A stretch of DNA of 64,000 nt, taken from contig JACQBR010000001.1 of assembly GCA_016194335.1 (NCBI GenBank), positions 19,460 to 83,459 of the forward strand, given 5' to 3'. This document shows, in pieces, positions 31,648 through 60,579 of this stretch (positions are counted from its first letter, which is position 1; every line of letters begins with the position of its first letter). Position numbers and translations under genes: made by a program. Source of the stretch: Candidatus Micrarchaeota archaeon. Lineage in GTDB: Archaea; Micrarchaeota; Micrarchaeia; Norongarragalinales; UBA97. The notes under the pieces were generated by a model. The model was not told where the DNA came from. It worked only from the letters and a program-made list of their open reading frames with translations, and made no database searches.

Positions 31648-31825
31648 GCAGGAGTGGCAGAGCCTGGAAAATGCGGGGGCCTTAAGAGCCCCTCCCTCAG
31701 GGGTTCGCCGGTCCAAACAAACCTTTTCTTTCTTTGCTCGTCGGCGTTGCGACGCCTCCTCGTCAAAGAAAGAAAAGCTTTGATGGAAAAGAAAGAAACG
31801 GTTTTAGGGAATCCGGCCTCCTGCA
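31648..31825 (+). tRNA. tRNA-Leu (anticodon UAA) with ~94-nt intron in the T-loop (position 59/60)
   Basis: GCAGGAG-UG-GCAG-AGCCUGGAAAA-UGC-G-GGGGC-CUUAAGA-GCCCC-long variable arm-GCCGG-UCCAAA[intron 31718..31811]U-CCGGC-CUCCUGC-A; acceptor stem perfect 7 bp. Confidence 0.6.
31718..31811 (+). repeat. hairpin repeat element (CTTTTCTTTCTTT...AAAGAAAGAAAAG) forming the tRNA-Leu(UAA) intron; second copy at 53603..53710
   Basis: ~80% identity over ~90 nt between the two loci incl. 13-14 bp perfect inverted repeat and trailing GGAAAAGAAAGAA motif. Confidence 0.55.
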
Positions 31826-31854: not shown

Positions 31855-33195
31855 TCAGCTTTCAAGAAGCCATTTCCATAGGGGAGTGAACGTTATCAAC
31901 GTGTATTTCTCCTTTAGTTCTTTCTCTTCATCCCAAGTAAGTATAGTTCCTTTCTTTAAATTGAGTTCTTGCATCCCTCTGCGCAAGGCTTCCAGTTCGC
32001 GCTGTAGCGTAAAAGGGTTGGAAGCGTCGTGGCAAACTTGGATTAGTTGCGTGGGCTTCCCTTTCTCAAGCGCCACGAAGTCGACTTCCCTGCCGGAGTG
32101 GTCTTTCCAATAGCAGAATTCGCCCGTCCCTTCAAGCGAACTGCGGCGCAGCAGTTCCACCGCAACGAGCGTTTCGATCAGCCGGCCTTTTCCGCTTGAC
32201 GAAAGGGGGGCTATTGAGGAGACGAGCCCGGAATCTATGCAGTAAACCTTCTTTGGCGCCATCAGCTGCTCCTTAAGCTTGTATGAAAACCGCTTTACCA
32301 TGAAGATCAGAAACGCGTTTTCAAGGTATGAGGCGTATTTCTTGACTGTGTGTGCGCTCTCCAGCCCCAACACATTCCTGAGTTTATTGAAGCTGACTTC
32401 GAGTCCGGAGTTGGACACGAGCAGTCTTGCAAGGTCCTTGAGTGCTTGGGGGCGCTTCGGCCTGAATCTTGAGAGAATGTCCTTCTGAAGAACGTCCGAA
32501 TAGAGCGAGAGGTGGAAACCCGGCTCGCCCTTGTACGCCAGCGGGTAGCCGCCTTCAATGAGGTACCGTTCGAGAAAAGACTTTGTTTTGGCTATGGATG
32601 AGGTAAGGTTGGAATCAGGCGAATGCCCGCGGTAATTCAGGTACTCCCCAAACGAAAACGGGAAGACGCGTACGTCGGTGTGGCGACCTGTAAGATACGT
32701 TGCAAGCTCGCCGCTAAGCAGGTTGGAATTGGAGCCGGTGATGATTACTTTCCTGTTTTGTGAGATTCTCGAGATGAACCGCTCCCAACCGGCAATGTTC
32801 TGGATTTCATCAAAGACCCACGCTTGAGCATGCGGGTAAAGCGACAGGAACGCTTCAGCCACGCTGTTGAGTTCCCTACCATCCAGACTTACTCGCTCGT
32901 CGTCGAAATTGATGTACGCATGCGGCTTGTCTTTCACGCATAAAAGGCAGAATGTGGTTTTGCCAGCCCGCCGTGGGCCGGTGACGACGGTAATCAAATC
33001 AGTTTGGGGATTGCAGGAAATGCGTTCCCGCGGCACAATTCGGCCTGAAGAAAGCCTTGATTCGTATTGTTCACGCTGGTCGGCAATAATGCGCTTGAGC
33101 TCCCGGCTTTCCATGCAAAAATTACCCCGCCCAACAATATAAATGTTTGCGTTCCAAATGCATAGTTTTGGCAAATATCTGCATTTGAAATGCAT
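31855..33195 (-). CDS. AAA+ superfamily ATPase with DUF4143 (COG1373), paralog
   Basis: Walker A TGPRRAGKTT; 446 aa; same architecture as 29385..30674. Confidence 0.7.
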   Translation of the reverse strand: MHFKCRYLPKLCIWNANIYIVGRGNFCMESRELKRIIADQREQYESRLSSGRIVPRERISCNPQTDLITVVTGPRRAGKTTFCLLCVKDKPHAYINFDDERVSLDGRELNSVAEAFLSLYPHAQAWVFDEIQNIAGWERFISRISQNRKVIITGSNSNLLSGELATYLTGRHTDVRVFPFSFGEYLNYRGHSPDSNLTSSIAKTKSFLERYLIEGGYPLAYKGEPGFHLSLYSDVLQKDILSRFRPKRPQALKDLARLLVSNSGLEVSFNKLRNVLGLESAHTVKKYASYLENAFLIFMVKRFSYKLKEQLMAPKKVYCIDSGLVSSIAPLSSSGKGRLIETLVAVELLRRSSLEGTGEFCYWKDHSGREVDFVALEKGKPTQLIQVCHDASNPFTLQRELEALRRGMQELNLKKGTILTWDEEKELKEKYTLITFTPLWKWLLES

Positions 33196-33288: not shown

Positions 33289-33882
33289 TCACGCAGTCAG
33301 CGCGCTTCCCCGCCTGCATTCAAGAAGCGTGCAGGGGTCGATGATGGCGCTTCCAAGCCTGATTTCGAAATGCAGGTGGGGCGGGGTGTCGTGGGCGTTG
33401 CCGGTTTTTCCCATCGTTCCGAGCCGCTGGCCTTTTGAGATTCGCTGGCCTTGCGAAACGGCTACAGTATCGAGGTGGCAGTAGATTGAGCGCCTGCCGT
33501 CGGGGTGCTTCACGCTCACTTCCTTCCCGCACAGGCCGCTTCCCGCATTGTTGGCAATCACAACCACTCCTGCCTCAAACGCGACCACGGGAGTGCCAAC
33601 CTTGTTGAAAATGTCGATTCCCTGGTGGGAGTGGCCATCGCGCGGGTCGCCGATGATGCTTCCCACCGTTCCCGTAGTGGGATCTCCTATGGCAGTTGAT
33701 GACGCCGTGATTTCGTTGATGTGGAGTATGCACACGCCTTGGAACGATTGCGAGTCGCACGAGGCGGTTTGGGCCGAAATGAAATTGACTGCCAGAAAGA
33801 GAGTTAGTGCGGCCAACGGGATTTTTCTAAGCATTAGGCAGAACACCAAAAATAATTTTTCAGACGAAACGCCAGTCGGCAT
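33289..33882 (-). CDS. secreted M23-family metallopeptidase (LytM/lysostaphin-like)
   Basis: Signal peptide; HQGIDI (HxxxD) and HLHFEI (HxH) M23 zinc motifs; 197 aa. Confidence 0.8.
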   Translation of the reverse strand: MPTGVSSEKLFLVFCLMLRKIPLAALTLFLAVNFISAQTASCDSQSFQGVCILHINEITASSTAIGDPTTGTVGSIIGDPRDGHSHQGIDIFNKVGTPVVAFEAGVVVIANNAGSGLCGKEVSVKHPDGRRSIYCHLDTVAVSQGQRISKGQRLGTMGKTGNAHDTPPHLHFEIRLGSAIIDPCTLLECRRGSALTA

Positions 33883-34384
33883 AGCCCTTGCCGTCGATTC
33901 CCAATTTCAATGCCAAGTCCCGCGTGACGTCCAAGGACGCGCCAGTGGATTTCCACTTGCCATTGCAGCCAGAGTTTAGTTTTGAAAGCAACACGCCGAT
34001 GTTCTTCTCCGCAAAAGGCCTGCTGGTTCCGAAAACATACGCGTCATCGTCGCCATTTTTGGTGATTCCGCAGAATGGGCCGACGTCGGTGACGGTAGTT
34101 GTTACCGTCCTGCCGTTTCTCCCGCGGATTTCTATAGTCCTGCCCTTTGCTTTCGAAGATGGTAGTGCCGCACCATAGGGCTTGTCGGAGAACACCGTAG
34201 TGATGATGTTGGTGTGCCACCCTCCACCCCCGCTGGGTGCCTGCGTGTCGGGAGCGACGGTATTGAGATGGAGTATGCACACTCCTTGAAACGTTTGGGC
34301 GTCGCAAGTTGCCGCCTGCGCCGCGGAGTAGATGGCCAAGCCTGCAACCAAAAGGACAATCGCCAAAGCCAGTTTGCGGGCCAC
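33860..34384 (-). CDS. secreted RlpA-like / double-psi beta-barrel (3D-domain-like) protein
   Basis: Signal peptide; VTTTVTDVGPF and DLALKLGIDGKGY resemble RlpA/expansin DPBB; shares N-terminal module A(T/S)CD(A/S)Q(T/S)FQGVCILH with the M23 gene; overlaps it by 23 nt. Confidence 0.5.
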   Translation of the reverse strand: MARKLALAIVLLVAGLAIYSAAQAATCDAQTFQGVCILHLNTVAPDTQAPSGGGGWHTNIITTVFSDKPYGAALPSSKAKGRTIEIRGRNGRTVTTTVTDVGPFCGITKNGDDDAYVFGTSRPFAEKNIGVLLSKLNSGCNGKWKSTGASLDVTRDLALKLGIDGKGYADWRFV

Positions 34385-52180: not shown

Positions 52181-53602
52181 ATGGGCGCAATCATCGACGC
52201 ACTTACCCCACTTTTCAAGCTTCTTCCCGAAGTCAAGCGCCCCGACCGCGCCCCGGGCTTGCGGGAAAAGCTCGCCTGGACCGCCGGCGCCCTCGTGATT
52301 TTTTTCATCCTCGGCCAGATTTACCCCGCGGGCGTTGACGCCTCCCGCCTCGTGGGTTTCGAACGGCTTGAAATCCTTCTGGGCAGCAGGATTGGCACGC
52401 TCATCACCGCGGGAATCGGCCCCATCGTCTTGGCAAGCATCTTCCTCCAGCTTGGAGTGGGCTCTGGGTTGGTAAACCTCGACTTGAGCGAGCCGGAGAA
52501 CAAGAAGAAGTTCCAGGGGCTGCAGAAATTCCTTTCAATCGCCCTGAGCTTTCTCGAGGCGGGCATCTATGTCTTCTCCGGCTACGTGGGGGTGAACACC
52601 GCCGCCCCGATTTTCGGCAACGTGTTTGCCGCGCAGCTTTTCGTCGGCTTCCAGCTTGCCCTCGGCTCCCTAATCCTGCTCTATCTAGACGAAGTGGTGC
52701 AAAAGTACGGAATCGGAAGCGGCATTTCCCTCTTCATCGCCGCGGGCGTTTCGCAGGCGGTGTTTCTCGGCGCGTTCAGCCTGGGGACGAGCGCAACCGG
52801 GGTGTTTTACGGCCTCATTCCCAAGGCACTCCAGACCGCCGCCGGGGGGGACTTCATCACCGCCCTGTGGTACCTGCCTCCCATCCTCTTCACCATCGTC
52901 ATCTTCATGATGGTGGTTTACGTAGAGGGAATGCGCATCGAGCTTCCCCTCGCCTACGGCAAGGCGCGGGGTTTGGGAGCGCGCTATCCCATCAAGTTCA
53001 TGTACGTAAGCAACATCCCAGTCATCCTCGCAAGCGCCGTGCTTCTCAACGTCCAGCTCTTGGGGCTGGTCTTCGCGCGCGCGGGTTTTTCCATCCTCGG
53101 CGATTACCGAGGGGGCAACCAGCCCGTGAGCGGGTTGGCATACCTCACCTCCGCGCCGCCCTCGCCGCTTCTCGGCGTGTTTGACGGCAATTACTACACC
53201 TACCTCCAGTTCATCCTCCAGCCTTCCGAACTGCTTCACATCCTCGTCTACGGAATCGCCCTTACTTTCCTTTGCGTGGTGTTCGGGTGGTTCTGGATCG
53301 AAAGCACCGGAATGAGCGCGCGCGACGTTGCGAGGCAGCTCGAGCGCGTGGGCCTTCAGATTCCCGGCTTCCGCGCCGACCCGCGCGTTATTGAAAGCGT
53401 GCTCGCGCGCTACATCCCCGTGATCACCGTTCTCGGAAGCATTTTCGTGGGCATTCTCGCGTGGTTTGCCGACATCACCGGCGCGCTTGGAACGGGAACT
53501 GGAATCCTGCTTACCGTGGGAATCCTCTACAAGTTTTACGAGGACCTCGCCCAGCAGCAGCTTTTCGAAATGTATCCCGCGCTCAAGTCGTTCGTCTCCT
53601 AA
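52181..53602 (+). CDS. secY: preprotein translocase subunit SecY
   Basis: 473 aa, 10 TM; canonical position after rpl15. Confidence 0.9.
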   Translation: MGAIIDALTPLFKLLPEVKRPDRAPGLREKLAWTAGALVIFFILGQIYPAGVDASRLVGFERLEILLGSRIGTLITAGIGPIVLASIFLQLGVGSGLVNLDLSEPENKKKFQGLQKFLSIALSFLEAGIYVFSGYVGVNTAAPIFGNVFAAQLFVGFQLALGSLILLYLDEVVQKYGIGSGISLFIAAGVSQAVFLGAFSLGTSATGVFYGLIPKALQTAAGGDFITALWYLPPILFTIVIFMMVVYVEGMRIELPLAYGKARGLGARYPIKFMYVSNIPVILASAVLLNVQLLGLVFARAGFSILGDYRGGNQPVSGLAYLTSAPPSPLLGVFDGNYYTYLQFILQPSELLHILVYGIALTFLCVVFGWFWIESTGMSARDVARQLERVGLQIPGFRADPRVIESVLARYIPVITVLGSIFVGILAWFADITGALGTGTGILLTVGILYKFYEDLAQQQLFEMYPALKSFVS

Positions 53603-53710
53603 AGCCCTTTTCTTTCTTTAGCTCCTCGCGCTTTACGGCGCTTCGTCGCGTAAAGAAAGAAAAGCCCTTGGGGAAAAGAAAGAATAAAAAAGAAAGAAAC
53701 TCCTTTCCCC
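53603..53710 (+). repeat. second copy of hairpin repeat element (CTTTTCTTTCTTT..AAAGAAAGAAAAG) immediately after secY stop; possible terminator
   Basis: Homologous to tRNA-Leu(UAA) intron 31718..31811; perfect 13-bp inverted repeat flanking GC-rich inner stem. Confidence 0.55.
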
Positions 53711-53757
53711 CCCGCATCTTCCCAGAAACGCAAAAACCATTCAAGTCGTGATTTCCC

Positions 53758-60387: not shown

Positions 60388-60579
60388 GTGGGGGTGGCAG
60401 AGCCTGGTCAAAACCCTTTTCGAAAGAAAAGGGAAACAAGCAACGCATGACAAGGTCGCCCTCAAAACCCGCAAACGGGTTCCAACAGAGCGCCTGTAAT
60501 TTGCTTTTCGTTGGCCAAATGCGCAGGATTGAGGCTCCTGTTCCTTAGGGATGCCTGGGTTCAAATCCCAGCCCCCACA
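60388..60579 (+). tRNA. tRNA-Leu (anticodon GAG) with ~106-nt non-canonical intron in the D-loop (approx 60413..60518)
   Basis: GUGGGGG-UG-GCAG-AGCCUGGUCAAA[intron]A-UGC-G-CAGGA-UUGAGGC-UCCUG-UUCCUUAGGGAUGC-CUGGG-UUCAAAU-CCCAG-CCCCCAC-A. Confidence 0.6.

Follow-up and report, generated by a model that had tools for sequence, protein, structure and literature searches.

A repeated hairpin element with a mirrored third purine tract in a tRNA-Leu intron and behind secY of a Micrarchaeota archaeon

Results

The 64,000-nucleotide stretch of Candidatus Micrarchaeota DNA analysed here (the window) carries one element twice, in homologous copies with about 80% identity, one forming the core of the intron at 31718-31811 and the other lying in the spacer behind secY at 53607-53700. 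Each copy consists of a perfect 13-nt pyrimidine/purine hairpin (arms Y and R1), an 8-nt turn and a third purine tract (R2). R2 is the mirror image of R1 and not a direct repeat of it, at 13/13 positions in copy 1 and 12/13 in copy 2, and in both copies the tracts follow one another in the class II order Y, R, R on one strand. Judged from the letters of the DNA, this order with a mirrored third tract marks the coding strand as a potential class II intrastrand triplex and its complement as a class III one. On balance we lean towards regarding the element as a propagating, non-coding repeat that is defined by its structure and persists where it is harmless, in spliced introns, tRNA flanks and intergenic spacers.

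Two copies of the element in the window

The features of the two copies and of the tRNA gene that surrounds copy 1 are these:

31648-31717, + strand: tRNA-Leu(UAA) exon 1, from the acceptor to T-loop position 59
31718-31811, + strand: tRNA-Leu(UAA) intron, 94 nt, at T-loop 59/60 with a predicted relaxed BHB (splice-out test and fold)
31723-31735, + strand: copy 1, pyrimidine arm Y, CTTTTCTTTCTTT
31736-31764, + strand: copy 1, GC-rich loop with inner stem GGCGT/ACGCC
31765-31777, + strand: copy 1, purine arm R1, AAAGAAAGAAAAG
31778-31785, + strand: copy 1, 8-nt turn, CTTTGATG
31786-31798, + strand: copy 1, third tract R2, GAAAAGAAAGAAA, an exact 13/13 mirror of R1, recovered by a generic class II scan
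31812-31825, + strand: tRNA-Leu(UAA) exon 2, followed by the T9 terminator tract
53603-53757, + strand: spacer of 155 nt between secY and an EMC3-like gene, holding copy 2
53607-53619, + strand: copy 2, pyrimidine arm Y, beginning 5 nt past the secY stop codon (53600-53602)
53620-53651, + strand: copy 2, GC-rich loop, 21/27 identical to the loop of copy 1
53652-53664, + strand: copy 2, purine arm R1
53665-53672, + strand: copy 2, 8-nt turn, CCCTTGGG, self-complementary (CCC-TT-GGG)
53673-53685, + strand: copy 2, third tract R2, GAAAAGAAAGAAT, a 12/13 mirror of R1
53686-53700, + strand: copy 2, extra purine tract R3, AAAAAAGAAAGAAAC

The arms CTTTTCTTTCTTT and AAAGAAAGAAAAG are perfect inverted repeats, at 31723-31735/31765-31777 in the intron and at 53607-53619/53652-53664 behind secY. 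A first-pass annotation of this DNA had described them, together with the GC-rich inner stem that they flank, and both copies indeed have this arrangement. It had also put the identity of the two copies at about 80%, which agrees with the mean column identity of 77% in a MAFFT alignment and about 80% in a local alignment; the count of two copies refers to the 64-kb window. The trailing purine motif that it attributed to both copies is present in each, as one tract in the intron and as two in the secY copy.

When up to one mismatch was allowed, the 13-mer occurred six times in the 64-kb window against 0.18 expected, and six occurrences were reached in none of 100 shuffles. Chance likeness of low-complexity sequence had been named as what could overturn the comparison. 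The GC-rich loops of the two copies are identical at 21/27 positions (78%), with an alignment score of 19 against 11.4 +/- 2.4 in 5000 shuffles (p = 0.013), and the whole elements align with a score of 76 against a background mean of 14.8 over 2324 tiles of the window. Since the loops agree beyond the shuffled expectation, the likeness of the copies is not merely a matter of low complexity, and the copies are homologous. The defining feature of the element, its mirror-repeat (intrastrand-triplex) design, had gone unseen in the first-pass annotation. A generic scan of the window for class II triplex motifs picked out just these two copies, each on the + strand; 30 shuffled windows yielded no such locus.

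The turns also connect the window copies with copies in other genomes. Turns related to the CTTTGATG of copy 1 read GCGTTTACGG, GCATTCATGG and ACGTTGACGA elsewhere, the first of these being common to L092 and L124, and the turn GCCCTTGGG is common to copy 2 and to two Aenigmatarchaeota copies (L012, L115). Arrays of the form (R-spacer)n with n = 2-4 are common among archaeal copies. In the window copies the first loop measures 29 and 32 nt and the turn 8 nt, outside the short-loop range of 1-6 nt used by ITxF, while many other archaeal copies have loops of 3-7 nt and turns of 8-16 nt.

The intron of tRNA-Leu(UAA)

The annotation of 31718-31811 as an intron of tRNA-Leu(UAA) was borne out by splicing it out: joining position 31717 to 31812 gave a clean 85-nt tRNA-Leu(taa) cloverleaf with all four arms. 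A TATA-like TTTTATTAAA lies about 30 nt upstream of exon 1. The unspliced gene was missed by both ARAGORN and Rfam, which found only two tRNA-Thr genes in the window and missed both of its tRNA-Leu genes.

The intron interrupts the T-loop at 59/60, where the sequence reads UCCAAA/U with the cut after UCCAAA. The T-arm plus intron fold with -43.2 kcal/mol (z = -3.97), and the predicted BHB comprises the T-stem helix H1 (GCCGG/CCGGC), a 3-bp H2 (UCC/GGA) and H3 (AAACC/GGUUU). The predicted 3' splice site lies in a 2-nt bulge (A/U) and the 5' splice site in an internal loop (AAAC/UAG), so that the motif as modelled is relaxed and not strict. Introns at 59/60 with a relaxed BHB and a broad-specificity epsilon2 endonuclease have been described for ARMAN-2, a member of the Micrarchaeota (PMC3239211), and the window intron resembles these in its T-loop 59/60 position and its relaxed motif. 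It differs from them in size: the ARMAN-2 59/60 introns, which were cleaved in vitro, are only about 13 nt long (PMC3239211), whereas the window intron has 94 nt. Taking away the element leaves about 14-18 nt. The most economical interpretation is that the element sits as an insert in the apical part of an otherwise short 59/60 intron. In every respect but its cargo, the intron belongs to the ordinary Micrarchaeota 59/60 BHB class.

The secY site in related genomes

The window is archaeal: its SecY (52181-53602) is 100% identical to a protein of a Candidatus Micrarchaeota archaeon, and the SecY proteins of the next relatives are 73-78% identical. Three relatives (L121, L122 and L123) share the ribosomal-protein/secY synteny, with an orthologous EMC3-like gene downstream (62% identity). 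At the orthologous junction they have gaps of 1, 3 and 67 nt, respectively, all without the element, and none was found anywhere in the 21 kb of syntenic sequence searched in the three. The orthologous secY site thus displays the presence/absence polymorphism of a MITE- or REP-like repeat. As all three relatives lack it, the secY copy is a recently gained, lineage-specific insertion into an operon junction. No target-site duplication is visible by inspection at the secY site. Some archaeal copies repeat 3-5 nt (e.g. TGCCC) ahead of both Y and R2, which is ambiguous as a target duplication.

A BHB splice motif had been proposed as something to look for around the secY copy. None flanks it; the only candidate was an AAG/CUU helix with a CC/CC internal loop, and it was rejected. 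For the tRNA-Leu(UAA) locus, the neighbouring AAA+ ATPase gene (AAA_14/DUF4143) is not syntenic in the relatives, and no tRNA adjoins it there.

A possible relative in tRNA-Leu(GAG)

The second tRNA-Leu gene of the window, tRNA-Leu(GAG) at 60388-60579, is interrupted in its D-loop by an intron of about 105 nt, which contains one further feature:

60414-60433, + strand: Y/R hairpin CCCTTTTC-GAAA-GAAAAGGG inside the D-loop intron of tRNA-Leu(GAG), possibly a degenerate relative of the element

This D-loop intron is in the same position in all four genomes (the window and L121-L123), with a Y/R hairpin that varies: it is short in the window, larger and degenerate in L121 (AACCTTTTCTT...CGAAAAGCTTCACC-AAAAA-GTGG), and missing from L122 and L123. 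The turn GCTTCACC is common to the L121 copy and to L092. The first-pass annotation had listed a shorter related hairpin in this intron; the hairpin exists. Shared outer arm bases and the larger degenerate copy in the orthologous L121 intron make kinship with the element plausible but weakly so.

Related elements in other genomes

The hairpin by itself (TTTTCTTTCTTT, 20-50 nt, AAAGAAAGAAAA) was searched for in 185,579 species genomes; the third tract was not required, and the pattern fixed the arm sequence. At least 120 loci matched, against about 2 expected by chance by our own estimate. The matches listed came from the DPANN lineages Micrarchaeota, Iainarchaeota/Diapherotrites, Aenigmatarchaeota, Nanoarchaeota, Woesearchaeota and Altiarchaeota, from a few other archaeal MAGs, and from the bacterial groups Gastranaerophilales/Melainabacteria, Selenomonadaceae, Clostridia and Spirochaetota. 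One Selenomonadaceae MAG holds more than 15 near-identical intergenic copies in both orientations. Because the search pattern fixed the arm sequence, members from bacteria and archaea may have converged on it and need not form a single mobile lineage.

Among the matches listed there are roughly 134 hairpins, of which about 80% have a third purine tract, on one side only. This tract mirrors R1 in 60 unique elements and directly repeats it in 15 (matches listed). Since (AAAG)n is nearly self-symmetric, the comparison was repeated on asymmetric purine arms, and here the mirror beat the direct repeat 32:1, with 16 ties, among the matches listed. Exact 12/12 mirrors were found for many differing arm sequences. 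In a Micrarchaeota T-loop intron (L056), for example, Y is T7CT3C, R1 is GA3GA7 and R2 is A7GA3G, and a Selenomonadaceae repeat (L039) contains an exact mirror of 23 nt. This three-way covariation of Y, R1 and the mirrored R2 is the strongest evidence for selection on a triplex-compatible geometry, and as sequence evidence it is unusually direct.

Rfam gave no match to the window at the gathering score or at E <= 5, and close-ups gave only sub-threshold matches to generic, miRNA-like hairpins, which were put down to chance. The three-part pattern had no match in IMG/VR. The hairpin alone had five there: one in a giant-virus MAG and four, near-identical, in contigs of jumbo-phage size (about 190 kb). 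None of the five has the turn plus mirrored third tract of the element, and a viral link was therefore rejected. Literature searches for the element by sequence string and by topic returned nothing. Orientation relative to ORFs, by crude ORF calls, was not biased. A mini-hairpin in the spacer was rejected as a defining feature, since its excess was small among archaeal copies (2.70 against 2.42 +/- 0.12) and bacterial copies showed none.

Association with tRNA genes

The element was excised from each locus with varying boundaries, and ARAGORN was asked for a tRNA across or beside the junction. Among the matches listed, the element lies in or beside a tRNA gene in 19 of 41 archaeal cases, as against 1 of 70 bacterial ones, and that one is weak. 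Introns at T-loop 59/60 carry it in tRNA-Leu(UAA) of the window, tRNA-Ala(UGC) of L124, where the BHB central helix is the canonical UUCA/UGAA, tRNA-Leu(CAG) of L030 and tRNA-Gly(CCC) of L079; L056 and L060 are further T-loop 59/60 cases by eye. At the canonical 37/38 site, introns of tRNAs for Pro (L063), Trp (L073), Glu (L074) and Met (L092) contain it. It lies within the intron of a tRNA-Cys (L109), in the anticodon-loop region in L064 and near the D-loop in L021. Within some introns (L074, L092, L025, L081) R2 occupies the loop of a local stem.

Eleven of the intron copies among the matches listed are in the sense orientation (Y-R-R) and one is antisense. Copies in tRNA trailers are likewise sense and start 4-10 nt past the tRNA 3' end. 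Four archaeal copies in tRNA leaders have the opposite orientation and end 6-8 nt before the tRNA 5' end. Copies directly behind a stop codon, with the sequence TAA-AGCCC-TTTTC, were found in the window and in L012, L080 and L115.

Discussion

A propagating mini-element had been put forward as one reading of the repeat in the window. It is supported by the homology of the copies, by the absence of the element from the secY site of the relatives, by its occurrence in introns of differing tRNAs at 37/38, 59/60 and the D-loop in many DPANN genomes, and by the variable hairpin of tRNA-Leu(GAG). We propose that the mobile unit would be the hairpin plus mirror-tract module, put into a short BHB intron, and not the intron as such. 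Copy 1 would be removed from the tRNA-Leu(UAA) RNA by the splicing endonuclease; copy 2 is an insertion that separates secY from the following gene of its operon. The element would spread as selfish or neutral DNA, without serving the tRNA. Candidate routes of spread are template switching promoted by the hairpin or triplex at the DNA level, a trans-acting single-strand DNA transposase, and intron transposition at the RNA level. No defined element ends were found among the copies compared.

The 11:1 sense bias of the intron copies is not predicted by purely DNA-level random insertion. It could reflect RNA-mediated spread, by analogy with the intron transposition proposed for the Thermoproteales (PMC3239211), or it could come from selection against a very stable U.A-U triple helix or a double T-tract in pre-tRNAs.

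We infer that a triplex may actually form, the most plausible setting being DNA or the complementary strand, which is rich in T.A-T. In the literature as cited in PMC4666352, T.A-T triplets drive the stability of the pyrimidine motif and G.G-C triplets that of the purine motif, and RNA is reported not to form triplexes of the purine motif. The sense strand of the element is an A-rich purine motif and is hence expected to be weak. The A/T-rich motif and the reported triplet stabilities together point to the class III complement, or to the DNA form, as likeliest to fold, and not to the sense intron RNA. An alternative-pairing switch in the intron fold (Y with R2, the spacer with the start of R1) was rejected, as the secY copy does not conserve it. 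A C/D-box guide RNA was also rejected: the turn contains UGAUG, but no D box was seen by inspection.

The element might instead be a functional part of the sense RNA, either a binding platform or a stability or processing signal for pre-tRNAs and operon mRNAs in DPANN, which we regard as unlikely. The 11:1 sense bias in introns, the sense copies 4-10 nt past tRNA 3' ends, the placing of R2 in a local stem loop in the introns of L074, L092, L025 and L081, and the conservation of arm and turn sequences across phyla would all suit such a role. Close relatives nevertheless lack the element both at the orthologous secY site and in the orthologous tRNA-Leu(GAG) intron, the tRNA that carries it differs between genomes, the bacterial copies are intergenic, in both orientations and not linked to tRNAs, and four archaeal copies are antisense upstream of tRNAs. 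Moreover, no role is known for the mirror design in sense RNA of the Y-R-R type, purine-motif triplexes being reported, in the literature that PMC4666352 cites, not to form in RNA. The RNA-processing motif that the first-pass annotation had offered as the other reading of the repeat keeps the sense orientation of the intron copies in its favour, but it is disfavoured by the absence of the element at orthologous sites and its presence in bacteria away from tRNAs.

The complementary strand invites comparison with ENE/MALAT1. As in those RNAs, the Y-Y-R strand offers two U-rich stretches and one A-rich tract from which U.A-U triples could form, and at four DPANN loci a tRNA 5' end begins 6-8 nt downstream of this strand, a layout that resembles MALAT1/mascRNA. 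The sense transcripts of the window differ in having one U-rich and two A-rich tracts, so that only the antisense strand fits. A broader proposal is that a cross-domain family of triple-helix modules colonised DPANN tRNA genes, served as a vehicle of intron gain and enlargement (37/38, 59/60 and D-loop), and has in its upstream Y-Y-R copies a counterpart of MALAT1 plus RNase P; we hold this to be distinctly improbable.

A DNA signal of benefit to the host, such as a bidirectional terminator or insulator with T-rich tracts on the two strands, or non-B DNA that absorbs supercoils at highly transcribed genes, is less probable than a functional sense RNA. T-rich tracts are archaeal termination signals, and many archaeal copies begin with the T-rich arm just past tRNA 3' ends or stop codons. 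A mirror repeat is also the classical pattern of H-DNA formation (PMC4666352), which the element fits. However, the longest T-run in the window copies is 4, short of the at least 5 T at the 3' end of a unit by which oligo-T terminators are recognised, and tRNA-Leu(UAA) already has its own T9 terminator. Copy 1 lies in the sense orientation inside a tRNA gene, where termination would destroy the tRNA, and copy 2 splits an operon junction that measures 1-3 nt in L121 and L122, so that read-through is required for the genes behind it.

The view that AG/CT-rich low-complexity sequence or microsatellite-derived hairpins of separate origin resemble one another by chance has next to no standing: the near mirror symmetry of (AAAG)n does make the mirror signal partly trivial, and the genome scan forced the arm sequence, but this explanation is refuted by the 13-mer count (6 against 0.18 expected), the loop identity (78%, p = 0.013), the absence of class II motifs from 30 shuffled windows, the 32:1 preference for the mirror over the direct repeat on asymmetric arms among the matches listed, and the third tract in about 80% of the hairpins among these matches, though it was not required.

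Read as a propagating repeat, the element can be set beside several known systems. Conserved and abundant intrastrand triplex repeats are an established concept in prokaryotes (Holder et al. 2015, PMC4666352). Like the PIT repeats (E. coli BoxC/TMECO; Hoyne & Maher; PMC4666352), the element has a Y-R-R class II strand, a class III complement and a mirrored third tract, and like BoxC/TMECO it is multi-copy, mostly extragenic and conserved. Unlike the G/C-rich BoxC it is A/T-rich and (AAAG)n-like, it is archaeal and found inside tRNA introns, and its family spans DPANN and several bacterial phyla. Its loops also depart from ITxF-type PIT repeats, in which they measure 1-6 nt, the first loop of the family having 3-45 nt and the turn 5-16 nt; as the loops lie outside that range, ITxF would not have found the window copies. 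With REP/BIME and MITE-like repeats the element shares short length, lack of coding capacity, hairpin formation, multiple intergenic copies and presence or absence between relatives. It differs from REP and MITE repeats in its extra mirror tract, and no conserved flanking tetranucleotide or target-site duplication was identified.

Archaeal tRNA introns for which transposition has been proposed have similar sequences in differing tRNAs and positions, and the introns described here do likewise, which suggests transposition. What is shared here, unlike in known transposing tRNA introns, is a defined triplex-type module, and unlike known tRNA introns this module is also found behind secY, flanking tRNAs as trailer or leader, and in bacteria without BHB splicing.

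For the question of how archaeal tRNA introns at unusual positions originate and move, the module provides a traceable marker of intron gain. It marks introns of differing tRNAs and positions across several DPANN lineages, as well as non-tRNA sites. It also widens the range of conserved intrastrand-triplex repeats, of which the earlier studied example is the GC-rich enterobacterial BoxC, so that this range takes in an A/T-rich class, archaea and the interiors of genes. Standard tRNA finders miss genes of this kind, as ARAGORN and Rfam both did with the two tRNA-Leu genes of the window. The element may be one way in which archaeal tRNA introns grow and spread.

Element copies around tRNA genes

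The tRNA-Leu(UAA) gene, whose intron carries one copy of the element, has a predicted mature T-loop sequence of UCCAAAU (window 31712-31718), with C at position 55. To our knowledge, U is nearly universal at this position, where it is found as pseudouridine 55. The bulge-helix-bulge motif of this tRNA pairs GGG of the intron with UCC of the T-loop. The usual T-loop, UUCAAAU, is present in the window's other tRNA-Leu.

At four loci from other DPANN genomes (L041, L061, L084 and L093), a tRNA 5′ end follows the element after 6-8 nt. The tRNA strand carries the element in the Y-Y-R orientation, the complement of the pyrimidine-purine-purine (Y-R-R) form, so that an RNase P site is immediately preceded by one A-rich and two U-rich tracts. 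This layout is similar to that of MALAT1, in which mascRNA follows the triple helix.

At two further loci (L056, 7587-7850; L092, 6193-6364), a single tRNA gene has one copy of the element in its intron, and directly after its 3′ end lies either a second copy or a long array of (turn + purine tract)n. This arrangement suggests local duplication between intron and trailer.

Element copies in bacteria

In Selenomonadaceae RGIG9201, the element is present in more than 15 near-identical copies (loci L008, L014-L016, L033, L039, L048, L062, L066, L077, L082, L100, L103 and L104), which lie within a composite intergenic repeat of ~200 nt. Other parts of this repeat are an AT-rich segment and a second triplex-type hairpin, which is longer. 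Read on the Y-Y-R strand, the hairpin precedes GGTTTTTA, an arrangement that resembles an intrinsic terminator and often has a start codon 20-40 nt downstream.

The Melainabacteria copies (Gastranaerophilales loci, e.g. L004, L034, L053 and L068) have conserved, CTCAAGCGCCGTAAC-like loops of 21 nt, whose orientation is fixed relative to the third tract. The copy after secY shares the 11-mer TTACGGCGCTT (window 53633-53643) with these loops, but in inverted orientation.

Other repeats and neighbouring genes

Further features of the window are as follows.

31855-33195, minus strand: AAA+ ATPase gene (AAA_14 and DUF4143), adjoining tRNA-Leu(UAA)
33716-33776 and 34263-34323: pair of direct repeats of 61 nt at a distance of 547 nt, with 77% identity
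58901-59058: three 38-nt repeats with a spacing of exactly 60 nt, 68-76% identical to the reference copy

In the ribosomal-protein cluster of a relative (L121, 18919-19015), ARAGORN reported a tRNA-like gene of 97 nt whose anticodon has four bases (tggg); this gene is probably another intron-containing tRNA that was mis-parsed.

Relatives of the AAA+ ATPase are distributed patchily and without synteny across many archaeal and bacterial phyla, suggesting that this gene itself belongs to mobile or accessory DNA.
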